Counted from the stretch's first letter, positions 1,698 through 14,866 are shown. The stretch is 20,000 nucleotides of DNA from an uncultured virus (IMG/VR IMGVR_UViG_3300028592_000009) (IMGVR_UViG_3300028592_000009); one strand, 5' to 3'. The notes: generated by a model from the letters alone, not told the origin. Translations and numbers: made by a program.

Positions 1698-2360
1698 CTA
1701 CGACCCGCCGGTCAGCTTGTCGTAGCAGATGTCGCCGATGCCCCGTTCGCGAGTCCGCTCGTTGGTGAGCGGGCTGCTGCAGACTCCGCACTGTCCGACC
1801 TTCTGGCCGAAGAGGGCGAACGCCTCCGTGGGGTTCTCGTGGATGGCGCTGAGGATCTTGTACACCCGCAGCAAGCGGCGCCGACGGAAGTCGCCCGGAG
1901 CTCCGGTGAGCTCGCTGACGTCCATCCGTCGATTGCCTCGTCCGTCGTCCATGAGGCGGTGAACCTGGTAGAACCGGATCGTCTCGTCCTCGGACTGGAG
2001 CGCGTACTTGCCGGGCTTGATGGACAGGAACTTGTCGTCCCAGCCCGCGTACCCGGCCTGTGCGCCACGGACGTACGGCTGCTTGAGCATCCTGGAGATG
2101 AAGGAGCTCGCGTCGGCGAACCCGAGCGAGTTGATCATCTCCTCGTACTCGGCCTTCTCCAGCTCCTTGTACTCAGCCAGCCGCTCCCGCTCCCGACCCA
2201 GCGCGTGCGCCAGGGACAGCTGCTTGTGAGTGGACTTGGCCTGGAGACCGTGGCTGTGACGGAGGACACGGTCGTGGGCGGTCTCCCGGGGCCGAAGCCC
2301 CGAGCAGGTCCTTACATCGTCGACCGTGTCGTGCTCGCCCTTGCAGTTACCGCACCTCAT
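1698..2360 (-). CDS. hypothetical protein with N-terminal CxxC-H-C motif and C-terminal DUF6011-like zinc finger
   Basis: MRCGNCKGEH...C at the start; CGVCSSPLTNERTRERGIGDIC at the end. ATGA overlap with the upstream stop; SD AAGGAG. Confidence 0.8.
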   Translation of the reverse strand: MRCGNCKGEHDTVDDVRTCSGLRPRETAHDRVLRHSHGLQAKSTHKQLSLAHALGRERERLAEYKELEKAEYEEMINSLGFADASSFISRMLKQPYVRGAQAGYAGWDDKFLSIKPGKYALQSEDETIRFYQVHRLMDDGRGNRRMDVSELTGAPGDFRRRRLLRVYKILSAIHENPTEAFALFGQKVGQCGVCSSPLTNERTRERGIGDICYDKLTGGS

Positions 2361-3322
2361 CGGATCTCCTTCCGCGTGTCGCCGACACGGGTCTGGCCGA
2401 GGTCGGCGTTCCGGCCGTCGTTGCGACCCCGGGAGTAGGACTCGCCGATGATCCGCTGCTGGTAGCTGCGACCCTCCTTGATGTTGTTGTCCTCCTTGTA
2501 CTTGTCGTACGCGTCCTGGACGAGCGCCCCCTTGTCGCGGAGGGCGAGCTCGGCGCCGGTCGTCGCCTTGACCTGAGCGTCGCGGTGCTCCTGGAGCTTG
2601 TACAGACGGATCGAGACTTCGGTGCGGAAGCCCTCGGCGTAGGACCGCTGGAAGGTGACCGGCGTCTGGACCGCGCGGTACTCCAGACCCATGAGCTTGC
2701 ACCAGCGCTTGCAGGCGCGGATGAGGCGGCCGCCGTCCTTCTTCTTCTCGTGCCACTCGACCCACGGCCACGGCTCACCGATGGAGTCCTTGGGGTCGAG
2801 GTTGTGCTCCTCCATCCAGTGCATCCGGGCGATGTTCATCTGCGAGCAGGTCCGCTCCCAGTTGATCCCCGCCTCGTGCAGGATGTAGACGTTCTCGTCG
2901 TACGAGCGCTGCATGTCGACCTTCGGGTCGATCTTGCGCAGCAGCTGGAGACGGAGGCTCGTGTAGACCATCTCGGCGAACTTGATGTCCGAGGGCAGAC
3001 CGATGAAGTCGCCGAAGCCGTTGCTGTACCCGTGGAAGGCGCAGTCGTAGTGCTGCGCGACGCGGATGCAGAGGTTGTACAGGCTCGTCGCGATCGGGCT
3101 GTCCATACCGGCGAACTGGAAGCGAACGCGCTCCGGCATCTCGACCGGCTTGGCCTTGTCCTTGTTCGCGGCGGCGAGGATGGCCGCGTCGATCTGGTAC
3201 TTGGCCATCAGCTCGTCGGCCTTGGCCATGAAGTTGTTGGCGGCCTCCTCCTGCCCGCTCTCGCGGTGGGACTCGGCGGAGTTGAGCAGCGCCTGGATCT
3301 TGTTGATCATGGCGTCAGACAT
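2357..3322 (-). CDS. DUF2786-domain phage protein
   Basis: INKIQALLNSAES...EEAANNFMAKADELMAKYQID matches the DUF2786 pattern; C-terminal RSYAEGF and YSRGRNDGRNADL are typical of the family. Confidence 0.85.
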   Translation of the reverse strand: MSDAMINKIQALLNSAESHRESGQEEAANNFMAKADELMAKYQIDAAILAAANKDKAKPVEMPERVRFQFAGMDSPIATSLYNLCIRVAQHYDCAFHGYSNGFGDFIGLPSDIKFAEMVYTSLRLQLLRKIDPKVDMQRSYDENVYILHEAGINWERTCSQMNIARMHWMEEHNLDPKDSIGEPWPWVEWHEKKKDGGRLIRACKRWCKLMGLEYRAVQTPVTFQRSYAEGFRTEVSIRLYKLQEHRDAQVKATTGAELALRDKGALVQDAYDKYKEDNNIKEGRSYQQRIIGESYSRGRNDGRNADLGQTRVGDTRKEIR

Positions 3323-3334
3323 GGGGTGCTCCCT

Positions 3335-3391
3335 GGTCTCCTCAGCATGGGTACCTTACCCATGGACGTGACTGGCTGTCACGTTTCGACC
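3335..3391 (-). ncRNA. type II hammerhead ribozyme HHR1
   Basis: Minus strand: A-GGTC GAAA CGTGAC-AGCCA-GTCACG TC^ CATGGG-TAAGGTA-CCCATG CTGAGGA GACC, then AGGGAG..ATG. Predicted cut 3' of 3365. Confidence 0.95.
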
Positions 3392-3400
3392 TGGACGGGA

Positions 3401-3625
3401 TCAGTCGGTGCCGAGCACGATGTGCTCGTTGTTCGGGACGTCGCGGAGGGCGGCCTCGCGGATCGCCTCGTCCGACTTGTGCTTGTGCAGCATGTGCGCC
3501 AGCTTCTCGAGCTGCTCGGCGGAGATGTTGATCGCGTCCTGTCCGTCGTCGAGGAGGACGCCCTCCCATCCCTCGGACACGGTCGCCCAGAGGTAGTCGT
3601 CGAGCTGGACTCGTTCGTTCGCCAT
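3401..3625 (-). CDS. hypothetical protein (74 aa)
   Basis: MANERVQLDDYLW...; SD AGGAG. Confidence 0.7.
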   Translation of the reverse strand: MANERVQLDDYLWATVSEGWEGVLLDDGQDAINISAEQLEKLAHMLHKHKSDEAIREAALRDVPNNEHIVLGTD

Positions 3626-3633
3626 GGTCGCTC

Positions 3634-3762
3634 CTAGCAGCCCTGGTTGAGGATGAAGATGATGCCGAGCAGGACGATGATCAGGAGCACGATGCATCCG
3701 AACATCAGCTCGATGGCCATCTTGAGCATGTCGCCGTAGGACATGTTGGTGAAGCGCTTCAC
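3634..3762 (-). CDS. single-TM micropeptide (42 aa)
   Basis: GTG start overlapping the upstream TGA; SD GGAGG; LMFGCIVLLIIVLLGIIFIL. Confidence 0.6.
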   Translation of the reverse strand: MKRFTNMSYGDMLKMAIELMFGCIVLLIIVLLGIIFILNQGC

Positions 3763-4049
3763 GAGATCGCCTCCCACAGCGGACGGGGCGCGTAGGGGCT
3801 GATCCTGCCATAGCCGTTCACCTGGTCCGTGGCCAGCCACACGGCCTTGCGCGCCTCGTCGGCGAGCTCTCCGTCGATGTAGTCGGCGAGCTCCTCACCC
3901 GAGATGACGCCGAGCACGACCCCGGTGAGCGGGTAGGTCGGCTGCATCCCGACGAGCACCTCGACCTCGGAGACGTCGACACCGGCGTCCTCCAGGTCCA
4001 GCCGGATCTCTCCGAGCTTCTCGATGAGCTCCGTGAGCTTCAGCTTCAT
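3759..4049 (-). CDS. hypothetical acidic protein (96 aa)
   Basis: SD GGAGG directly after HHR2; good codon usage. Confidence 0.8.
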   Translation of the reverse strand: MKLKLTELIEKLGEIRLDLEDAGVDVSEVEVLVGMQPTYPLTGVVLGVISGEELADYIDGELADEARKAVWLATDQVNGYGRISPYAPRPLWEAIS

Positions 4050-4060
4050 GTTCCCTCCAC

Positions 4061-4123
4061 GATCTCGTCAGCACCCGTGCCATACGGGCGGACGCCACGG
4101 CTGGATGTCGCAGCGTTTCGATC
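4061..4123 (-). ncRNA. type II hammerhead ribozyme HHR2
   Basis: A-GATC GAAA CGCTGCG-ACATCCAGC-CGTGGCG TC^ CGCCCG-TATGGCA-CGGGTG CTGACGA GATC, then GTGGAGG..ATG. Predicted cut 3' of 4091. Confidence 0.93.
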
Positions 4124-4135
4124 TGGCTGTGGTGG

Positions 4136-4261
4136 TTACCAGTGGAGCCCGAAGGCTCGCAGGACCAGCCCGATGCCGACCCCGAGCAGGACCCCGAGGA
4201 TGGCGCAGGTGGCGATGTTCCACGGCGTGTCCGTGAAGAACGAGTTGAGCTTGCGAAGCAT
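4136..4261 (-). CDS. single-TM micropeptide (41 aa)
   Basis: MLRKLNSFFTDTPWNIATCAILGVLLGVGIGLVLRAFGLHW; GGAGG upstream. Confidence 0.6.
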   Translation of the reverse strand: MLRKLNSFFTDTPWNIATCAILGVLLGVGIGLVLRAFGLHW

Positions 4262-4358
4262 GAGCCCTCCCGAGGCCCTAGGCGGCCGTCTACGGGCCGC
4301 GCGTTGCCGGGTGAGCCCCTTCGCCCACCCGGCTTGCGTTCGGCGCTTACGTTGGCGC

Positions 4359-4901
4359 CTACGGCGTCTCGATGAACCCGGCCTCGTCGGCGTCACCATT
4401 CTCGACCGCCGCGAGCTGCGCCTCGGAGACGGCCGGATAGAGGCCAGCCGGGTGCTCGGTGAAGTTGCTGGCGCTGGAGCAGCCGATGTACTGGAGCTCG
4501 CACTCGATCACGCGGAGCTCGCGGTTGCGGATCTCCGTGAGGACGTTGTACCGAGCCTTGAGCTGCGCCTGGAGCCAGCTCGGGTCGATCCAGGCCGAGG
4601 CCCGCATCTTCTCGTTCGCCTTGAGCTCCAGGTACGCGAGCCGAACGAACTCGTCGACGTTGCCGAACTGCTCCAGGGTCGGCTCCAGACCGATCTCCAT
4701 GTCGGTCCGGTTGCCGAAGGACTCCTTGAGGAGGTACTCGACCTCGTCGTTCTGCTCCTGCGCCCGGAGGCGGTCGATGACCTCGTTGGCCCGCTTCTCA
4801 GCGTTGAAGCCGAGGATGTCGACGAAGACCTCGATCGTCTCCGCCGTGTCGAACTCCAGGTTGGTCTTCTCGATGAGAAGGATCCGGATACCCATAACCA
4901 C
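4359..4901 (-). CDS. hypothetical acidic protein (about 180 aa)
   Basis: AAGGAG after HHR3, then GTG (4899-4901) or ATG (4893-4895). Confidence 0.78.
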   Translation of the reverse strand: MVMGIRILLIEKTNLEFDTAETIEVFVDILGFNAEKRANEVIDRLRAQEQNDEVEYLLKESFGNRTDMEIGLEPTLEQFGNVDEFVRLAYLELKANEKMRASAWIDPSWLQAQLKARYNVLTEIRNRELRVIECELQYIGCSSASNFTEHPAGLYPAVSEAQLAAVENGDADEAGFIETP

Positions 4902-4913
4902 GCTCACTCCTTG

Positions 4914-4966
4914 AGAGCTCCTCAGCACCGGCTCTTACCGGCGGACGCCCGAAGGCGTTTCGCTCT
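4914..4966 (-). ncRNA. type II hammerhead ribozyme HHR3
   Basis: A-GAGC GAAA CGCC-TTCG-GGCG TC^ CGCCGG-TAAGAG-CCGGTG CTGAGGA GCTC. Stem III capped by a cUUCGg tetraloop. Predicted cut 3' of 4944. Confidence 0.95.
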
Positions 4967-4975
4967 TGCCTGGCG

Positions 4976-5015
4976 CCCGGTGCAGGGGTTTGGGTGGTCG
5001 CCACCCTGCACCGGG
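4976..5015. terminator. 12-bp GC hairpin after the 161-aa gene (attenuator or processing hairpin)
   Basis: CCCGGTGCAGGG(N16)CCCTGCACCGGG; no U-tract. Confidence 0.45.
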
Positions 5016-5029
5016 GCCGTCATGGGGTG

Positions 5030-5515
5030 TTACTCAGCGGCCTTGGCGGCCGTGCGGCGGGTGCGCCGGACTCGCGGCTTGGCCACGGGCGCCTCCTCCT
5101 TGGCCTCCTCGACCGGAGCGGTCTCGGCCACGGCCTCCTCGACCTTCTCCGCGTCGTCCGACAGCGCCTGGTCGGCCTCGCTGTCGTACTCCTCGGGCTT
5201 GGTCTCCTCGGCGACCGGCGCGGCCTCCTCGCCCTTGAGCTTGGCGAGCTCGGCCTCCAGCTTGGCGAGCTTGCGGGCCTTGGCCTCCTCGGCCTTCTTG
5301 GCCGCCGCGACCTTGCGGTCGGCGAGGTTCGCCTGGTTCTCCGGGCTGGCCTGGAAGTCCAGGCGGAAGGACACCGCGAGCTGGACGGTCTTGAGGTCGG
5401 GCTTGACCCCCGTCTTCTCCTCGATCCAGGCGGCGAACGCCTTGTGGAGGTCGGTGGGCTCGGCCTTGGCGCGCTCGGCGAAGGTCTTCTTCTTGGAGGC
5501 GGTGTTCTCGGTCAT
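5030..5515 (-). CDS. Ala/Lys/Glu-rich protein, paralog of 10513-11073
   Basis: N-terminal about 80 aa are clearly homologous to the 186-aa ORF; basic C-tail KPRVRRTRRTAAK. Confidence 0.85.
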   Translation of the reverse strand: MTENTASKKKTFAERAKAEPTDLHKAFAAWIEEKTGVKPDLKTVQLAVSFRLDFQASPENQANLADRKVAAAKKAEEAKARKLAKLEAELAKLKGEEAAPVAEETKPEEYDSEADQALSDDAEKVEEAVAETAPVEEAKEEAPVAKPRVRRTRRTAAKAAE

Positions 5516-5527
5516 GGTAACTCCTAG

Positions 5528-5598
5528 GGACTCCTCAGCACCGGCACTCTACCGGCGGACCATCGGGGCGGCCTCTCGACCGCCCCTAGGTTTCGTCC
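5528..5598 (-). ncRNA. type II hammerhead ribozyme HHR4
   Basis: A-GGAC GAAA CC-TA-GGGGCGGTC-GAGA-GGCCGCCCC-GAT-GG TC^ CGCCGG-TAGAGTG-CCGGTG CTGAGGA GTCC, then CTAGGAG..ATG. Predicted cut 3' of 5558. Confidence 0.92.
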
Positions 5599-5612
5599 TG
5601 TGTACTGCTTCT

Positions 5613-5847
5613 CTCGCACCCGCCGGGACCTACCGGCTGCTTGTGCGAGGCGCGTCGACCAGTCGATTAGCCGAGCTACGGGTTTTGTGGAGGTCCCGTT
5701 CCTGTCAGAAGTCAGCGGCCCTTGCGGGGCGCGATCTCAGCCGTCTTCCTGGGCTGTCCTACTCGGGCTCGCGGTCTTCGGGCTGCGTCTCGACCGTCGG
5801 CTGGATGCGCCGTCCCGGGAGTTCCTCGCTTGCCCTGCTCGCTTACG
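5613..5847 (-). ncRNA. structured leader RNA, copy A (unassigned family)
   Basis: No credible ORF. Shares sequence blocks and covarying hairpins with 9334-9737. Lies between a promoter and HHR4. Confidence 0.75.
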
Positions 5848-5978
5848 AGTAGAACTATGCGCCATTCCTCCGGGGAAGGCAAACACCCATCTACCTGCGC
5901 ATTCATCGCGTTTGCCCTGGTAGGGGGCTTGCGAAGATTCTATAATTTCTTTCAAGAAATTACATATGCGCAGGTAGA
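5843..5978. repeat. duplicated promoter/operator module, copy A
   Basis: Aligns without gaps to 9733-9868 (offset 3890). Contains three CWGGTAG boxes and an AT-rich tract. Confidence 0.85.
5854..5882 (-). promoter_or_regulatory. promoter driving the HHR4-HHR1 operon
   Basis: TTGCCT-N17-CATAGT; hexamers identical to those at 9744-9772. Confidence 0.75.
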
Positions 5979-6039
5979 CATGAGTGTCGACCATCTACGG
6001 CGATTCACCGCGCCTCAGCGCGAATCGGGCGAAACCGCC

Positions 6040-6468
6040 CTACAGCGCCGTGAGCTTCCACAGCGAGCTGTCCTCCAGGCGCACAATCTGGGAGCCGTCC
6101 GAGGCCTTGCCGACGGGCTCGTACAGCTCCCAGGTGCCCGGCTTCTCCCAGGGGGCGCGCGGCTTGGCACGGGGCGGCACGGAGGCCGGGGTGCCGTCGC
6201 TGTGCGTGATGGGCTCATTCAGGTCCGCCAGGGGCACACCGGCCACGGCGGGCTGAGCCTTGGGCGCCGCACTGTTGACGCGCCAGACGTGTCCCTTGGA
6301 GATCACGTCGATGTCCATCTTGTTCTGAGCGATGATGCGGCGCATGACAGCGCGGACCTGCTCGTCGCGGAGGCCGGTCTCCTTGCAGGCCTCGTTGATG
6401 ATGATGGTCTGGCCGATGCGCGCGACCAGGTACTTGGTCATGGTCGACTGCACGTTCATGTTACCCAT
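6040..6468 (-). CDS. putative winged-HTH DNA-binding protein (142 aa)
   Basis: IIINEACKETGLRDEQVRAVMRRI...VISKGHVWRV fits an HTH plus wing; SD AGGAGG after HHR5. Confidence 0.7.
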   Translation of the reverse strand: MGNMNVQSTMTKYLVARIGQTIIINEACKETGLRDEQVRAVMRRIIAQNKMDIDVISKGHVWRVNSAAPKAQPAVAGVPLADLNEPITHSDGTPASVPPRAKPRAPWEKPGTWELYEPVGKASDGSQIVRLEDSSLWKLTAL

Positions 6469-6484
6469 GTTGCAGAGCCCTCCT

Positions 6485-6546
6485 AGACTCGTCAGCGGCC
6501 GTCTACGGCCGGACCGCACCCCGGTGACCCGGGGCCGGTTTCGTCC
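6485..6546 (-). ncRNA. type II hammerhead ribozyme HHR5
   Basis: A-GGAC GAAA CCG-GCCCCGG-GTCA-CCGGGGT-G-CGG TC^ CGGCCG-TAGA-CGGCCG CTGACGA GTCT, then AGGAGG. Predicted cut 3' of 6512. Confidence 0.93.
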
Positions 6547-6555
6547 TGTGGAGGA

Positions 6556-7188
6556 TCAGACGTAGGACCAGGAGCGCACGACCGACATGGTGCCATGGCT
6601 GGCGACCCGCTGCCTGGCCGCCTTGAGCAGCTCGTCCTGGTCGGGCTCTCCGAGCACCTTGACGCGCTGCTGGCTGATCTTGGCCGGATACTTGAGCCCG
6701 TGCTGCTTGTCCATCTGCACGACGGCGAGCCTGTCGTAGCGGTTGAACTCGCTGTCCTCGAACCGGAGAATCACGCCCTCCATGCCCACGTACCGGCCAC
6801 GGGTGGTGAGCGACTTCACGCGCTTGCCGATGCCGGGGGTGGACCAGTTGTCCGTGGCCGACTTCACGAGCATGCGGATCGTCCACTCGTCGGCCGCCCT
6901 GAGCACGTCGATCGTGGCGTCGGCGGAGGCGTTGTGGTGGTACGTCCAGCCACGGGTCGTCGCGTACTGGATCGTCTTGACGCGCTCCTCCTCGGCGTCC
7001 CACACGACCGCGTAGAAGTCGCTGTCGTCGTGCATGTTGCGCTCGTAGATGCCGATCACGGCTCCGAGATAGGTCGTCTCGTGGGCCTCAAGGTGCAGTT
7101 TGTTGAGCGCCTCGTCGGAGCTGTACTGGTTGGGGTCGTACCCCTGCTCCTTGCCGTGCCAGGGGTTGGTGCAAGTGATGATGGGCAT
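6556..7188 (-). CDS. hypothetical protein (210 aa), possible KOW/SH3-like C-terminal domain
   Basis: Start MPIITCTNPW after GAGGAGG; GIGKRVKSLTTRGRYVGMEGVI resembles a KOW motif. Confidence 0.8.
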   Translation of the reverse strand: MPIITCTNPWHGKEQGYDPNQYSSDEALNKLHLEAHETTYLGAVIGIYERNMHDDSDFYAVVWDAEEERVKTIQYATTRGWTYHHNASADATIDVLRAADEWTIRMLVKSATDNWSTPGIGKRVKSLTTRGRYVGMEGVILRFEDSEFNRYDRLAVVQMDKQHGLKYPAKISQQRVKVLGEPDQDELLKAARQRVASHGTMSVVRSWSYV

Positions 7189-7201
7189 GATTCCTCCTCG
7201 G

Positions 7202-7254
7202 GAGCTCTTCAGCAGGACCGTGCAGCCCTGGACGCTCACATGAGCGTTTCGCTC
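7202..7254 (-). ncRNA. type II hammerhead ribozyme HHR6
   Basis: A-GAGC GAAA CGCTC-ATGT-GAGCG TC^ CAGGGC-TGCACG-GTCCTG CTGAAGA GCTC. Predicted cut 3' of 7231. Confidence 0.94.
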
Positions 7255-7259
7255 TGGGT

Positions 7260-7433
7260 GGCGACCTCCGCACCCCTCCATATGAGTGCAGAGGCCGCCT
7301 GCGGGCCATTTCGAACAAGGCTCGTGCCCGGGCACAACCCGGTCGGACGATCGTGCTCCTAGGAGTGCACTAGCGAAAGCCGTGCTGCACGAGCCAGGTC
7401 TTACGGATCCCCGCGTTCCGGCCGTCGCCGGAA
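7260..7433 (-). ncRNA. candidate structured RNA upstream of HHR6
   Basis: Non-coding gap with a 16-bp hairpin (7260-7299), a 9-bp helix (7319-7327/7387-7395) and a 7-bp hairpin (7416-7433). Confidence 0.45.
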
Positions 7434-7436
7434 GTC

Positions 7437-7586
7437 TTATGCCAGCTCCAGGCCTCTGTCGAAGCCGCACTGGGCATGGGCGACGATGCTGATGGCGCCC
7501 GAACGATCGGCCGTCCTGAACTCAGCCATCTCGTCGTCCGGCCCCTCGTCGCAGAGCTCGCAGTCGTCGTTGAACTCGGGCAGCAT
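7437..7586 (-). CDS. small CxxC...HxxC protein (49 aa)
   Basis: MLPEFNDDCELCDEG...VAHAQCGFDRGLELA; TGATG coupling to the upstream gene; below the ORF-track cutoff. Confidence 0.65.
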   Translation of the reverse strand: MLPEFNDDCELCDEGPDDEMAEFRTADRSGAISIVAHAQCGFDRGLELA

Positions 7587-7843
7587 CAGAGGGCCTTCCG
7601 AACGTTGATGGAGAGGACGACCGGGTTGGTCCAGATGTAGTTGCCGGAGCCGTCGGTGTTGCTCTGGTGGACGGTCGTCCTCCGGTCGATGCGGTATGCC
7701 ATCACGAACCGCGCGGCCATCGTTATGTCCGGGAGCTCGATGTCGAGCGTGCCGGTTCGATCCATGCCGTGGACCGTGGCCTTGAAGGCGGCCACGTTGC
7801 TCGTCAGCAGACCCTGCAGAACGGTGTCGATCTCGATGGTCAT
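7586..7843 (-). CDS. hypothetical protein (85 aa)
   Basis: SD GGAGG directly after HHR7. Confidence 0.78.
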   Translation of the reverse strand: MTIEIDTVLQGLLTSNVAAFKATVHGMDRTGTLDIELPDITMAARFVMAYRIDRRTTVHQSNTDGSGNYIWTNPVVLSINVRKAL

Positions 7844-7852
7844 GATTCCTCC

Positions 7853-7909
7853 GGTCTCTTCAGCAGGCGCACCTTACGCCTGGACGTCGCTGGCTGCGAC
7901 GTTTCGACC
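7853..7909 (-). ncRNA. type II hammerhead ribozyme HHR7
   Basis: A-GGTC GAAA CGTCGC-AGCCA-GCGACG TC^ CAGGCG-TAAGGTG-CGCCTG CTGAAGA GACC, then GGAGG. Predicted cut 3' of 7883. Confidence 0.95.
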
Positions 7910-7973
7910 TGGTTGGAGAAGTGGTCTTGCCGGCATGCCCATAAGCAGGCTAGCCAGACGGATAGGGCGGCCA

Positions 7974-8069
7974 TCAGGCCGCGCCCCAGAAGATCGCCAG
8001 GCTGACGGCGACAACGCCGATCACGAACAGGATGCACCCGAGGGCCATCTGGTCTCCGCTAACACCCAT
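7974..8069 (-). CDS. single-TM micropeptide (31 aa)
   Basis: MGVSGDQMALGCILFVIGVVAVSLAIFWGAA; TGATG-coupled. Confidence 0.6.
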   Translation of the reverse strand: MGVSGDQMALGCILFVIGVVAVSLAIFWGAA

Positions 8070-8188
8070 CAGAAGAACTCCACCTTCGAAACGATGAACA
8101 TGAGCACGGACATGAGGACCATCCCGACCGCCATCAGCGCGAGCAGGAACAGGAAGCAGCCGCGCGCTTCCTCGTAGCCGTCGGCCAT
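8069..8188 (-). CDS. single-TM micropeptide (39 aa)
   Basis: MADGYEEARGCFLFLLALMAVGMVLMSVLMFIVSKVEFF; TGATG-coupled. Confidence 0.65.
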   Translation of the reverse strand: MADGYEEARGCFLFLLALMAVGMVLMSVLMFIVSKVEFF

Positions 8189-8307
8189 CAGAACACCAGC
8201 CCCATCAGGATGGTGAAGCCGACACCCAAGGCGAACCCCAGTCCGCCGAGACCGACAAGTATCTTGAACAGGTCGCTCCTGTCGCGATCGCTGGAACCCA
8301 TCAGCAT
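8188..8307 (-). CDS. single-TM micropeptide (39 aa, Gly-rich helix)
   Basis: MLMGSSDRDRSDLFKILVGLGGLGFALGVGFTILMGLVF; TGATG-coupled. Confidence 0.62.
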   Translation of the reverse strand: MLMGSSDRDRSDLFKILVGLGGLGFALGVGFTILMGLVF

Positions 8308-8435
8308 CAGTGCTTCCTGCCCTTCTTGTCCTTGCCGGTGTTCTTGATGAGGACGTAGACGATCCAGCAGATCACGGCGATGAAGCCGAAGAACAGCAGG
8401 GTGTCCACGATGAGGATGAACAGTTCAGCGGGCAT
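8307..8435 (-). CDS. single-TM micropeptide (42 aa, basic C-tail)
   Basis: MPAELFILIVDTLLFFGFIAVICWIVYVLIKNTGKDKKGRKH; SD AAGGAG after HHR8. Confidence 0.72.
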   Translation of the reverse strand: MPAELFILIVDTLLFFGFIAVICWIVYVLIKNTGKDKKGRKH

Positions 8436-8446
8436 GCACTCTCCTT

Positions 8447-8529
8447 GAGCTCGTCAGCACGGCCACCTAGCCGTGGACGAGCCCCGGGCGAAGGGGTGTT
8501 GGGGAGTCCGCCCGGGGCTCGTTTCGCTC
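8447..8529 (-). ncRNA. type II hammerhead ribozyme HHR8
   Basis: A-GAGC GAAA CGAGCCCCGGGCG-(18-nt C-rich loop)-CGCCCGGGGCTCG TC^ CACGGC-TAGGTG-GCCGTG CTGACGA GCTC. Predicted cut 3' of 8476. Confidence 0.94.
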
Positions 8530-8533
8530 TGTC

Positions 8534-8842
8534 CTACTTGTCCGTCGGGACGTTGACGACCGCGTCGTCCGAGCCCCAGCCCGCGTTCGGGTCCGAGCCC
8601 TGGTCCTGCGGGATGTTGACGACCTCGCTGTCGTTGCCGAGGTACTGGTTCTCGTCGCCCATGTTGGCGATCTCCTTCTTGATCTGGTTCCAGATCGTCT
8701 CGTCGTCGAGGTGCGGGAACGTCTTCTTGGCGATGACGAAGACCGACTGAATCTCGATGTCTCCCTCAGCCCAGCAGGGCATGCTGCCCGGGCCCGGCAC
8801 CTTCTGCTTGGTCAGCTCCTGGATGTCGAGCTCGACCTTCAT
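8534..8842 (-). CDS. hypothetical acidic protein (102 aa)
   Basis: SD AGGAGG after HHR9; internal repeat DSEVVNIP/DDAVVNVP. Confidence 0.78.
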   Translation of the reverse strand: MKVELDIQELTKQKVPGPGSMPCWAEGDIEIQSVFVIAKKTFPHLDDETIWNQIKKEIANMGDENQYLGNDSEVVNIPQDQGSDPNAGWGSDDAVVNVPTDK

Positions 8843-8852
8843 GCTTCCTCCT

Positions 8853-8911
8853 AGGACTCATCAGCACGGCTTCCTTAGCCGTGGACCCGGCTGGCTACCG
8901 GGTTTCGTCCT
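8853..8911 (-). ncRNA. type II hammerhead ribozyme HHR9
   Basis: (TG)A-GGAC GAAA CCCGG-TAGCCAG-CCGGG TC^ CACGGC-TAAGGAA-GCCGTG CTGATGA GTCC. Abuts the upstream stop codon. Predicted cut 3' of 8884. Confidence 0.96.
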
Positions 8912-9237
8912 CAGTTGAACTGCGCCTCGACCAGCGTCCTGTGTCGGCGGATGGCCTGGCGTACCGCGTCGTACTTCGCCCCGTGCCGGAACGCCACGGC
9001 CTGCATGGCGCCTCTGACGCATCCGAGCTTGACCCAGTCCTCGTACAGCCTGGCGTCCGACACCCTGAGCGGAATGTACTCGCGCTGGACGATGTCGTAC
9101 CGAGCCTTGAGCCGCCTGCGGATGCAGGTTTCGGTCACTCCGTACTGGAGCGCCGTCTGCGAGACGTTCCGACCGAGCAGCTCCCACATCGTGTGGATGC
9201 GCTCGTTGTCCTGGGGCAGCTGGCTGGTTGCCGGCAT
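8911..9237 (-). CDS. putative double-HTH DNA-binding protein (108 aa)
   Basis: NVSQTALQYGVTETCIRRRLK and AMQAVAFRHGAKYDAVRQAIRR; SD GGAGG after HHR10. Confidence 0.72.
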   Translation of the reverse strand: MPATSQLPQDNERIHTMWELLGRNVSQTALQYGVTETCIRRRLKARYDIVQREYIPLRVSDARLYEDWVKLGCVRGAMQAVAFRHGAKYDAVRQAIRRHRTLVEAQFN

Positions 9238-9248
9238 GCTCACCTCCG

Positions 9249-9322
9249 AGACTCTTCAGCAGCGCCGTTCAGCGCCGGACAGCCCGCCCCCGGGTCATGG
9301 CCAAGGGCGGACTGTTTCGTCT
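9249..9322 (-). ncRNA. type II hammerhead ribozyme HHR10
   Basis: A-AGAC GAAA CAGTCCGCCCTTG...CGGGGGCGGGCTG TC^ CGGCGC-TGAACG-GCGCTG CTGAAGA GTCT. Predicted cut 3' of 9278. Confidence 0.93.
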
Positions 9323-9333
9323 TGTTGTGTTGC

Positions 9334-9737
9334 CTGCACCCCTGTGGGACCTACCACAGCGCTTGTGCAGTTCGCAGCTAGCTTTGCACCTTGCCTACCA
9401 ACCTGATGTGTCCACGTAGAAGCGGGTTCCGTGTCTCCCTCGCTTGTACGTGGCCGTCCCAGGCCAGTCGCGTGCTGTCAGCCTCTCGGCTGTCGCCTGC
9501 CACTACCGGTTGTGTGGGGGTCCGGTTCCCGTCTCGAGTCAGCCGCCTGCTGGACACCTTCTCCAGAGGGGGCGATTAAGGCCGTCTCCCTTGGCCCGCC
9601 CGGGTTGTCGTCACCGGGCTCCGAGTTCGACCGCGAGGGCCAGCTTGGGGGATGGGTTCCCGGTTCACCCGTAGGTCGCTTCCGGTCCGCTCTCCCCGCC
9701 TCAGAGGGGGTCGGACCCTCTGCGACTCGGTGTTACG
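9334..9737 (-). ncRNA. structured leader RNA, copy B (unassigned family)
   Basis: About 400 nt without a credible ORF; homologous to 5613-5847 with compensatory changes and insertions. Confidence 0.75.
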
Positions 9738-9876
9738 AGGAGAACTATGCCCCAGTCGGGCTGAGAAGGCAAACAGCCTCCTACCTGGTCATTCATCGGA
9801 AAAGCCCTGGTAGGAGGCTTGCGAACAATCTTGAAGTTTTTTGAAGAAATCATGAAAGCCCTGGTAGGAGGCTTGC
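9733..9876. repeat. duplicated promoter/operator module, copy B, with an internal 22-bp direct repeat
   Basis: AAAGCCCTGGTAGGAGGCTTGC at 9801-9822 and 9855-9876; inverted partial copy AGCCTCCTACC at 9775-9785. Confidence 0.85.
9744..9772 (-). promoter_or_regulatory. promoter driving the HHR10-HHR5 operon
   Basis: TTGCCT-N17-CATAGT. Confidence 0.75.
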
Positions 9877-10003
9877 CGGCATGCCGAAGCCGTAGGCGCC
9901 CCGTAGGCGGCTCGCGAGCGCTCGCGAGGGCGCGGGTATCCGGGCGCGCCCGTTCGCCCCGTAGGCGGCCACGTAGCGGCTCTGCCGGGGCCGGAACGCA
10001 GAA

Positions 10004-10032
10004 CAGCCCCGCTCCCTCTCGGGGCGGGGCTG
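10004..10032 (-). terminator. intrinsic terminator
   Basis: 12-bp GC hairpin just after the stop at 10046, followed by TTCT on the minus strand. Confidence 0.7.
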
Positions 10033-10045
10033 CTGGGGCTGGATG

Positions 10046-10417
10046 CTAGTCGACGAACTCGCTCAGGATCGCGTAGACCTCGACCTTGGCCTTGCGGGTC
10101 GTGGCCGCCTCGGCGTTGACCCAGGGGCTCGTCGACTGGACGCCGTAGTCCTCGATCAGCTCGTCGCGCATCCGGCGGACCCGGTAGACCAGCTGCTTGG
10201 ACTGCTCGACCGCGTCGGCCTTGTACTTCTCGGCGACCAGGTACAGGCGGGTCCAGGCGTCCAGGACAGCCTCGGCCTTGGCCACGTCCTCCATCCGGCT
10301 GACCGGGACCCTGGTCGGCTCGGCGATCGCCTTGGTCAGCGCGTCGTACGCCTTGTTGAGGTTGGTGTTGGCCTTGGCGGCCTCAGCGATCACGGCGGCG
10401 GCGAGGGACTGGTACAC
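10046..10417 (-). CDS. hypothetical helical protein (123 aa)
   Basis: GTG start after AACAACAACAAGGAG. Confidence 0.8.
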   Translation of the reverse strand: MYQSLAAAVIAEAAKANTNLNKAYDALTKAIAEPTRVPVSRMEDVAKAEAVLDAWTRLYLVAEKYKADAVEQSKQLVYRVRRMRDELIEDYGVQSTSPWVNAEAATTRKAKVEVYAILSEFVD

Positions 10418-10512: not shown

Positions 10513-11073
10513 CTAGTTGTCGAGCTTGGGGCAGCAGGGCTTGGCGTCGTAGGCCATGTAGTTGTCCTCCAGGCTCGACTCACCCGAGTCGATCATGTCG
10601 GCGTAGATGATGTGGGTGACCTCGGTGTGGCTGCTGACCGTGACCGTCTCCTGGCTGTCGCCCTTGCGGCGGCTGCGCTTAATGTCGGCGCAACCCGCCT
10701 TGTGGACCTCCGGCTCGCCGTTGCCCTTGTACAGGATGGTGAGCTTGACCTTCTCGGCGGGCTCGACCGGGGCGGCCTCCTCGACCTTGGGCGACTCCTC
10801 CTTGCCGGCACGCAGCTTGGCCAGCTCGGCCTCCAGGCGCGCCTTCTTGCGCTCGGCCGCACCCTTGCGCTTCGCCTCGGCCTTGGCCTTGCGCTCGGCC
10901 AGGGAGGCCTGGTTCTCGGGGGAGGCCTGGAAGTCCATGCGGAGGGTGGTGACCAGCTGGACGGTCTTCAGGTCGACCTCGACCCCGGTCTTCTCGGTGA
11001 TCCAGGCGGCGAACGCCTTGTGGAGGTCGGTGGGGGCGGCGGCGGCGCGCTCGGCGAAGGACTGCTTGGCCAT
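10513..11073 (-). CDS. hypothetical protein (186 aa), paralog of 5030-5515, with C-terminal H..C..C..C domain
   Basis: Shared N-terminal domain; VHKAGCADI...KPCCPKL. Confidence 0.85.
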   Translation of the reverse strand: MAKQSFAERAAAAPTDLHKAFAAWITEKTGVEVDLKTVQLVTTLRMDFQASPENQASLAERKAKAEAKRKGAAERKKARLEAELAKLRAGKEESPKVEEAAPVEPAEKVKLTILYKGNGEPEVHKAGCADIKRSRRKGDSQETVTVSSHTEVTHIIYADMIDSGESSLEDNYMAYDAKPCCPKLDN

Positions 11074-11123: not shown

Positions 11124-11152
11124 ACTTTACCCCAGTGGACTGGAGGTGGCTA
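11124..11152 (-). promoter_or_regulatory. array promoter
   Basis: TAGCCA-N17-TAAAGT. Confidence 0.8.
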
Positions 11153-11244
11153 CCTCCATTTGCAACTTTCTTGAAGATTCTTTCGGGAGGCCGTAGGCGG
11201 CTGTCTGCCGGCATGCCGGCATGAGCGGGGCGCCGGGCATGGGC

Positions 11245-11565: not shown

Positions 11566-11594
11566 AGTCTACGCCACTGCACATGTGCTGGCTA
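11566..11594 (-). promoter_or_regulatory. array promoter
   Basis: TAGCCA-N17-TAGACT. Confidence 0.78.
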
Positions 11595-11666
11595 CCTCCA
11601 TGTGCGATTTGCTTTCGCAAACAGCAAAGCTCCGGCTGGCTGCCGGGGCTCGGGGTGTGGCTCGGT

Positions 11667-13200: not shown

Positions 13201-13229
13201 AGTATACTCCACTGCACATTGGTTGGCTA
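13201..13229 (-). promoter_or_regulatory. array promoter
   Basis: TAGCCA-N17-TATACT. Confidence 0.8.
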
Positions 13230-13248
13230 CCCCTTTGTGCAGATTGAT

Positions 13249-13571: not shown

Positions 13572-13600
13572 ACTTTACTCCAGTCCACTGCAGCTGGCTA
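13572..13600 (-). promoter_or_regulatory. array promoter
   Basis: TAGCCA-N17-TAAAGT. Confidence 0.8.
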
Positions 13601-13668
13601 CCTGCAATCGCAACTTTCTTCAAGATTCTTTCAGACTCATGCCGGCTTGGATTCCAGGCATCAAACCA

Positions 13669-14125: not shown

Positions 14126-14154
14126 ACTCTACGCCAGTGCACTCCACCTGGCTA
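14126..14154 (-). promoter_or_regulatory. array promoter
   Basis: TAGCCA-N17-TAGAGT. Confidence 0.8.
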
Positions 14155-14169
14155 CCCTCCAGTCCAAAC

Positions 14170-14825: not shown

Positions 14826-14854
14826 AGTCTACCCCAACTCCAGCTGTTTGGCTA
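14826..14854 (-). promoter_or_regulatory. array promoter
   Basis: TAGCCA-N17-TAGACT. Confidence 0.78.
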
Positions 14855-14866
14855 CCTGCACATGCA

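Follow-up and report, generated by a model that had tools for sequence, protein, structure and literature searches.

The window analyzed here, a 20,000-nucleotide (nt) stretch of DNA from an uncultured virus (IMGVR_UViG_3300028592_000009), carries exactly ten type II hammerhead motifs on its minus strand between positions 3335 and 9323, and in all of them a U at stem I position 1.7 goes together with an A directly 5′ of stem II (position −1). In relatives from viral and bacterial collections, these two positions are mostly kept as U and A, and the rare changes are mostly joint ones. Type II hammerhead arrays between genes of phages were described as early as 2011 (PMC3088659), and the U…A loop contact is likewise known (O'Rourke et al., 2015); what is new is the evidence that positions 1.7 and −1 are kept and change together over hundreds of phage and prophage copies, in a pseudoknot-free class missed at the Rfam threshold. 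We regard it as evenly balanced whether the ten motifs act as type II hammerhead ribozymes braced by a U1.7-A contact and encoded on the coding strand of a Streptomyces-phage-like genome.

Each unit reads, 5′ to 3′, as the A, the 3′ strand of a 4-bp stem II, GAAA, the stem III hairpin, UC followed by the cleavage site, the stem I hairpin, CUGANGA, and the 5′ strand of stem II. In all ten, loops close stems I and III and stem II is open, which is the type II topology. Judged by the core given in the methods of PMC3088659 (C3 U4 G5 A6 N7 G8 A9, G12 A13 A14, A15.1-U16.1, and H17), the core is complete in every copy: CUGANGA, GAAA, the A15.1-U16.1 pair, and a C at position 17 are all present, and all 13 core positions are intact. 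Compact copies measure about 52 to 58 nt. We number the elements HH1 to HH10 from 5′ to 3′ on the minus strand, the reverse of the HHR numbering used in an earlier note on this DNA (HH1 is HHR10, and HH10 is HHR1).

That note had noticed six stem I nucleotides, always beginning with the C1.1-G2.1 pair, followed by U in every copy, and our minus-strand parse returned all ten strings with their C1.1-G2.1 start (from HH1 to HH10, CGGCGC, CACGGC twice, CAGGCG, CAGGGC, CGGCCG, CGCCGG twice, CGCCCG, and CAUGGG). The A immediately 5′ of the 4-bp stem II, also pointed out there, is likewise present in 10/10; in HH2 (HHR9) it lies at 8911 and indeed ends the TGA with which the upstream open reading frame (ORF) 8911..9243 stops. 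As had been proposed, the A comes from an open strand: no loop closes stem II, and the 5′ single strand ends in the A. In HH2 and HH8, this A could alternatively pair with a U at position 10.5. With a minus-strand composition of 14.9% U and 20.0% A, composition alone would give ten out of ten with a chance of about 5e-9 for the U and 1e-7 for the A; since the ten copies are related, the contrast between compensated stems and an invariant U and A is a better argument than these odds.

Compensation is indeed extensive. In a MAFFT alignment of the ten copies, 98.0% of the stem cells are paired, compared with 70.6% in shuffles, and 11 of the 15 pairs show compensatory change with both sides altered, all three stems being involved. 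The covariation score of this alignment was reached by none of 500 shuffles, and the three-way junction is the minimum free energy structure in 10/10. Orthologues in cultured phages also differ by compensated substitutions: stem II of HH10 is GGUC/GACC, while that of its counterpart in the Streptomyces phage Yara is GGAC/GUCC, and stem III differs as well. Together with the intact core, these observations bear out that part of the note's interpretation which sees selected motifs and not decayed repeats; as a whole, the interpretation is supported in part.

The motifs might nonetheless be inactive relics, or serve otherwise, as protein-binding hairpins or transcription signals, without cutting RNA. 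The failure of all ten to reach the Rfam gathering score would fit such a reading, but that low score is accounted for by an absent pseudoknot tail and a longer stem II, and the 13 core positions and the compensation in all three stems argue the other way, as does the retention of the motif on the gene strand of five phages. Moreover, for same-class type II hammerheads from prophage arrays, cleavage has been demonstrated both in vitro and in vivo (PMC3088659, PMC8782182): Perreault et al. report cleavage of their arrays in vitro and in Escherichia coli (PMC3088659), and Desulfovibrio vulgaris hammerhead copies were detected in total RNA (PMC8782182). We therefore consider relics or other uses very improbable.

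The five phages comprise the window and four cultured relatives. The DNA runs that contain the window are soil metagenomes, and a search of sequencing runs listed no RNA run containing it. By sequence, the window is similar to the right arm of cultured Streptomyces phages, and a megablast search with positions 2300-10300 matched Yara (24% covered, 80% identity), Dryad, Wentworth, Rooney, and Gibson. The ten window copies were turned into a covariance model (R1), which was used to search the window and the Yara, Dryad, Wentworth, and Rooney records, the latter from position 25,000 or 30,000 to the end. It found 38 copies scoring 48 to 76 bits, 10 in the window and 28 outside it (8 in Yara, 7 in Dryad, 6 in Wentworth, and 7 in Rooney, i.e., six to eight in the scanned part of each relative), all of them on the gene strand. 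R1 detected no further copy in the window, where the only other match scored 13.6 bits (E value of 0.55). Both U1.7 and A(−1) are kept in 38/38 copies, next to a 4-bp stem II. None of the four records carries a ribozyme annotation; we found no report in the literature of hammerheads in Streptomyces phages or actinobacteriophages, and the word Streptomyces is absent from the available part of the supplementary text of Perreault et al. (PMC3088659).

Several smaller features of this phage group were also recorded. Three orthologous hammerheads (Wentworth L011:29348-29425, Dryad L010:30444-30521, and Rooney L012:30248-30325) read CCGAUGA or CCGAAGA, with C replacing U at core position 4 and an otherwise intact motif, a variant that no window copy shows. 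The stem III pentaloop AGCCA occurs in HH2, HH4, and HH10 (positions given as about 8893, 7892, and 7374) and in relatives, with 9/38 copies in the phage group against 3/279 among the matches listed in the other collections. The eight bases preceding stem II in the 38 copies are rich in C and A and poor in G (34 G of 266 bases), with a C at −3 in 31/38 and an A or C at −2 in 31/38.

The refuting case envisaged in the earlier note, a lack of conservation of the two positions in homologs, was not borne out in larger collections, which were searched with patterns that fixed the core, a GUC triplet, and one stem II sequence, while leaving 1.7 and −1 free. The GGAC/GUCC class of IMG/VR comprises at least 148 loci; among the matches listed, 153 distinct ribozymes were parsed, of which 149 are (U,A) at (1.7,−1), two (A,C), and two (A,U), all four variants thus being changed jointly. 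A complete IMG/VR scan for the GAGC/GCUC class yielded 85 stretches and 59 distinct ribozymes (L219-L303), 58 of them (U,A) and the single variant again jointly changed, to (A,C). A complete scan of bacterial genomes, taken one per species, gave 84 stretches of the GGAC/GUCC class, and 67 ribozymes were parsed from 80 loci (L305-L384; one further ribozyme was dropped because its upstream base is lacking). Their hosts belong to many phyla, among them Actinomycetota, Acidobacteriota, Proteobacteria, Bacteroidota, and Melainabacteria. There, 49 are (U,A), 11 (A,U), and 3 (A,C), while (A,A), (G,G), (C,A), and (U,U) occur once each: of the 18 ribozymes that are not (U,A), 15 differ at 1.7 as well as at −1, and 14 of these have A1.7 together with C or U. 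A model-fitted alignment of the genome set gave, for the −1 and 1.7 columns, A:U 49 times, U:A 9 times, other combinations 6 times, and gaps 12 times, with no change on one side only.

Two complete IMG/VR scans aimed at the exceptions point in the same direction. Only 12 loci have a base other than A at −1, and 10 of these have A at 1.7 (seven with U and three with C at −1). A non-U base as the seventh after GUC was found at 46 loci, 36 of which could be parsed; for most of these, another reading of the cleavage site restores U1.7, and the 15 true cases consist of ten (A, C or U), three (A,A), and two (G,A). Two of the (A,A) cases have a U at 1.6, and one of the (G,A) cases has a pseudoknot between loop I and the tail. 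The joint changes support a functional link between the two positions, that is, their mutual dependence at the level of sequence. How many times the switch to A with a pyrimidine (A,Y) took place was judged from the sequences and not computed; it may have been perhaps six or so times.

The sequences suggest that U1.7 and the A probably touch, holding the ribozyme in its active shape. By analogy with solved structures, the likeliest geometry would be the trans-Hoogsteen U-A pair of full-length hammerheads: in 3ZP8 and 2QUS, the stem II tetraloop ends in an A (AL4) that presents its Hoogsteen face to the U seven bases 3′ of the cut (PMC11875169). The geometric argument of the earlier note holds in this respect, as the A immediately preceding 11.4, with stem II at 4 bp, occupies the AL4 place and the U stands exactly at 1.7. 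In terms of base-pair families, the replacement of the A by C or U when 1.7 is A would suit an adenine whose Hoogsteen face takes up a pyrimidine more than it would suit a Watson-Crick pair.

Among the closest counterparts of the arrangement in the window are the fast minimal ribozymes of O'Rourke, Estell, and Scott (2015; cited through PMC11875169), which have AL4:U1.7 as their only contact and a 4-bp stem II. The likeness extends to the U at the seventh position of stem I, the 4-bp stem II, and the A 5′ of 11.4. In the engineered molecules, however, the A is the final base of a closed GNRA-type tetraloop and the design leaves the U unpaired, whereas in the phage copies the A ends an incoming single strand, position 10.5 is variable, and 2.7 could serve as a partner of the U. 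In favor of a contact, PMC11875169 also states that L1.1 and L2.4 are essential to the sTRSV ribozyme.

Several observations weigh against a contact, or against its proposed geometry. In the trans-acting minimal hammerheads of PMC11875169, the U is reported not to be essential for speed. Nearest-neighbor folding predicts U1.7 to be paired with A or G at 2.7 in 9/10 window copies (P of 0.87 to 0.99), and 2.7 is G or A in 37/38 phage copies; such a Watson-Crick or wobble partner would compete with the trans-Hoogsteen pair, because it uses the same edge of the U. Loop I reads U-N-R in 8/10 window copies, and 81/95 five-nt loops have A or G as their third base, a purine with which U1.7 might serve a U-turn instead. 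Single-position exceptions exist as well: two of the 12 IMG/VR loci without A at −1 keep U1.7, five cases without U1.7 keep the A in the complete non-U scan, and the 67 genome ribozymes include four mixed ones. A single subfamily, distinct also in the length of stem I and in its loop, accounts for most (A,Y) cases. Finally, mutual information over flank and loop positions made many unrelated pairs "significant", which indicates that relatedness inflates association statistics and that the Fisher values for 1.7 and −1 (4.6e-8, 0.017, and 6e-12) overstate the association.

Part of this evidence would suit an explanation in which the two bases do not meet at all, U1.7 being kept locally, through a weak closing pair or a UNR-type turn, and the A separately, because it stacks on stem II, holds it at 4 bp, or belongs to a G-poor single-stranded spacer, while the joint changes mark a diverged subfamily. 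The U-N-R loops, the C/A-rich 5′ tail, and the strong background associations between unrelated positions are all compatible with this, as is the makeup of the 22 distinct (A,Y) ribozymes, 13 or so of which represent one design with a 5-bp stem I and an 8-nt RANNGAGA loop. Yet the remainder includes joint changes in the majority architecture of a 6-bp stem I and a 5-nt loop (L161, L162, L265, and L165), and one of these shares its contig with copies of the U/A type (L029/L030). In addition, a local role of the A leaves unexplained why C or U substitutes for it almost only with A1.7. On balance, we find the absence of a contact unlikely. The members of the RANNGAGA subfamily with A1.7 and U at −1 are L306, L307, L309, L310, L335, L347, L360, L364, L367, L369, and L383, from Saccharopolyspora, Pseudonocardiaceae, Lentzea, Sciscionella, and Melainabacteria assemblies.

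U1.7 and the A might also touch in another way, either with the A docking in the groove of a U1.7-R2.7 pair as a base triple or as a lone Watson-Crick-like pair. The purine at 2.7 and its predicted pairing with U1.7 speak for this, and a C stands at 2.7 in none of the 149 (U,A) ribozymes of the IMG/VR GGAC class among the matches listed and in only two of the genome set; an exchange of U:A for A:U equally suits a Watson-Crick pair. Against it, a C lies opposite the A in 3/14 (A,Y) genome cases, in 3/10 IMG/VR cases, and in the single GAGC case, combinations that are not Watson-Crick, and the position of the A is exactly that of AL4. Five-nt loops, moreover, dominate loop I in the wider family and make a 1.7-2.7 pair unlikely there, since a U-G pair at these positions would leave a 3-nt loop. 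A geometry of this kind appears rather improbable to us, and the trans-Hoogsteen pair remains the arrangement that we favor.

A consensus for loop 1-loop 2 contacts, U Nm Y N - R Nm A, was tallied for type I, II, and III hammerheads in Figure S5 of Perreault et al. (PMC3088659). The window copies share its U, first in loop I in 10/10, the penultimate pyrimidine in 7/10, and the A at the end of stem II in 10/10. They differ from it at 10.5, the base opposite the A, which may be C, A, G, or U in the window and is a purine in only 5/10, with C in 25/38 copies of the phage group. Among IMG/VR relatives, 10.5 is A in 112/153 (among the matches listed) and in 41/59 of the two classes, respectively, which would give an R-A cap.

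[quoted passage not shown] Their consensus, also that of Rfam, has a very short stem II and a pseudoknot, whereas the window copies have a fixed 4-bp stem II and no detected pseudoknot. According to PMC3088659, a majority of type II hammerheads, though not all, have loop I paired with the 3′ tail in a pseudoknot of at least 4 bp. In the window, the complementarity of loop I to the 3′ side was 3.63 compared with 3.44 for mismatched partners, a value reached in 70/2000 permutations, and the 5′ side gave no signal (1937/2000 permutations as high). A resemblance of loop I to the 3′ strand of stem II was dropped as a candidate, its excess being marginal (70/2000 permutations). At its gathering thresholds, Rfam gave no match anywhere in the window. 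None of the ten copies passes the RF02276 gathering threshold of 37 bits, five scoring 24.1 to 26.6 bits, and in a sample of the IMG/VR GGAC/GUCC class, all 20 loci fell below the threshold, 7 being seen at an E value of ≤1. We attribute these low scores to the missing pseudoknot tail and to a stem II longer than the consensus. Taken further, a large phage and prophage type II class below the Rfam threshold might use the base pair between 1.7 and the cap, on an open 4-bp stem II, as its sole tertiary brace, making it the natural counterpart of the engineered minimal fast hammerhead; we put this forward tentatively, with somewhat less than even confidence. If true, the natural swap to A1.7 with a C or U cap would show that a pair of a pyrimidine on the Hoogsteen face of A works in either orientation.

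The placement of the ten ribozymes, within 6 kb on the coding strand and between genes, suggests how they may act. A start codon follows each of them by 9 to 19 nt, with a Shine-Dalgarno sequence in between; on the upstream side, the distance from the stop codon to the ribozyme is −1 to 11 nt in five cases, and the others are preceded by a spacer of 63, 63, 181, or 440 nt or by a leader. From the chemistry of the class, each ribozyme would cut the long phage transcript after C17, leaving an upstream piece that ends in the stem III hairpin with a 2′,3′-cyclic phosphate and a downstream message that starts with a 5′-OH stem I hairpin, its start codon lying shortly after stem II. The products would be joined solely by the 4-bp stem II, so that quick separation is expected. 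Conservation and covariation suggest that the U1.7-A contact, instead of a pseudoknot, stabilizes stems I and II in their parallel docking, with the A stacking on the open end of stem II. By analogy with the known arrays, the long transcript would most likely be cut into single-gene or few-gene messages, and cutting may in turn affect message stability and translation.

The individual copies, all on the minus strand, are as follows. HH1 (9249..9323) has its A at 9323, stem II AGAC/GUCU, C17 at 9278, U1.7 at 9271, and the core CUGAAGA at 9259..9253; the ATG at 9237 follows after 11 nt, and the R1 score is 65.7 bits. HH2 (HHR9; 8854..8911), capped by the stop codon A at 8911, combines stem II GGAC/GUCC with C17 at 8884, U1.7 at 8877, and the core CUGAUGA, 11 nt before the ATG at 8842 (72.5 bits). 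HH3 (HHR8; 8447..8530) is distinguished by a long stem III; its A lies at 8530, its stem II is GAGC/GCUC, C17 and U1.7 are at 8476 and 8469, and the core is CUGACGA, with 11 nt to the ATG at 8435 (70.4 bits with R1, 25.6 with RF02276). HH4 (HHR7; 7853..7910; A at 7910) has stem II GGUC/GACC, loop III AGCCA, C17 at 7883, U1.7 at 7876, and the core CUGAAGA, and the ATG at 7843 comes after only 9 nt (74.3 and 26.6 bits, respectively). HH5 (HHR6; 7202..7255; A at 7255) shares the core CUGAAGA and has stem II GAGC/GCUC, C17 at 7231, and U1.7 at 7224, followed after 13 nt by the ATG at 7188 (64.6 and 24.1 bits).

In HH6 (HHR5; 6485..6547; A at 6547), stem II is GGAC/GUCU, C17 lies at 6512, and U1.7 at 6505 opens a 4-nt loop (UAGA); the core is CUGACGA and the ATG at 6468 is 16 nt away (R1, 61.3 bits). 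HH7 (HHR4; 5528..5599; A at 5599), the first ribozyme after a 440-nt promoter-like leader, has stem II GGAC/GUCC, C17 at 5558, U1.7 at 5551, and the core CUGAGGA, with 12 nt to the ATG at 5515 (65.1 bits). The longest distance to a start codon, 19 nt to the ATG at 4895, is that of HH8 (HHR3; 4915..4966; A at 4966; stem II GAGC/GCUC; C17 at 4944; U1.7 at 4937; core CUGAGGA; R1, 66.9 bits; RF02276, 26.2 bits). HH9 (HHR2; 4061..4124; A at 4124) has GAUC/GAUC as stem II, C17 at 4091, U1.7 at 4084, and the core CUGACGA, 11 nt from the ATG at 4049 (74.0 and 26.6 bits). HH10 (HHR1; 3335..3392; A at 3392), the best R1 match at 76.3 bits, combines stem II GGUC/GACC and loop III AGCCA with C17 at 3365, U1.7 at 3358, and the core CUGAGGA; 12 nt separate it from the ATG at 3322.

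The genes of this region run on the minus strand. The proteins flanked by ribozymes are small, and family matches among them amount to one helix-turn-helix-like domain below threshold; after HH10, only DUF2786/DUF7168 and DUF6011 were found. Four tiny ORFs (42, 39, 39, and 31 amino acids) lie between HH3 and HH4 (7974-8435, minus strand), neighbors overlapping by one base (8307, 8188, and 8069), and a family search with them returned no match. A 254-nt direct repeat with 77% identity (5238-5491 and 10814-11067) links the gene that follows HH7 (5030-5515) to its paralogue at 10513-11073. No intrinsic terminator was predicted on the gene strand between 3300 and 9300.

Upstream of the hammerhead region, a promoter-like repeat is present in about 12 copies between 9733 and 14865, in the gaps before single genes (for example at 11124-11163, 11566-11605, 13201-13240, 13572-13611, 14126-14165, and 14826-14865; families D2, D3, D5, D11, and D14), one copy matching TAGCCA-17-TATACT. 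This part of the operon thus appears to have one promoter per gene, and the next 6 kb one ribozyme per gene. We also considered whether hammerhead DNA could itself act as a promoter, with loop III AGCCA as the −35 and loop I TAAGGT as the −10 element, and rejected this by eye, as the spacing is 14 nt and only two or three copies fit. A larger, AT-rich promoter-like module is duplicated at 5843-5977 and 9733-9867 (76% identity; D4) and is followed by leaders at 5600-5842 and 9324-9732, lying 250 to 410 nt upstream of HH7 and HH1. As such a module precedes the first ribozyme of each series, HH1 and HH7 would trim a long structured leader.

The leaders and spacers themselves contain further structure. 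A hairpin built as GCACAAGC-stem-GUAGGUCC-stem-GGGUGC, whose inner stems differ, is found on the minus strand at about 9376-9335 and 5648-5607; it ends 11 to 13 nt 5′ of HH1 and HH7 and also occurs before Yara and Rooney hammerheads (L009 at about 24116-24047 and L012 at about 34733-34664). Its loop contains GUCC, identical to the 5′ strand of stem II of HH7, and its fold z-scores are only −1.0 and −1.2. The spacers before HH8 (4967-5029, minus strand; −35.2 kcal/mol) and HH5 (7300-7436, minus strand; −66.2 kcal/mol) are strongly structured, each with a z-score of −3.3, and that before HH4 is unstructured (z-score of 0.6).

If the U1.7-A contact is real, it would bear on the disagreement over the importance of U1.7 between O'Rourke et al. 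(2015) and PMC11875169 and would provide compact, well-behaved parts for RNA engineering. Since all ten window copies and all 20 sampled viral loci fall below the Rfam threshold and the four relatives are unannotated, phage annotation would be missing a frequent, putative mRNA-processing signal. With a real U1.7-A contact, the smallest known fast hammerhead design, about 52 to 58 nt long and with neither a loop-loop nor a pseudoknot module, would occur naturally, and in large numbers, in phage operons.

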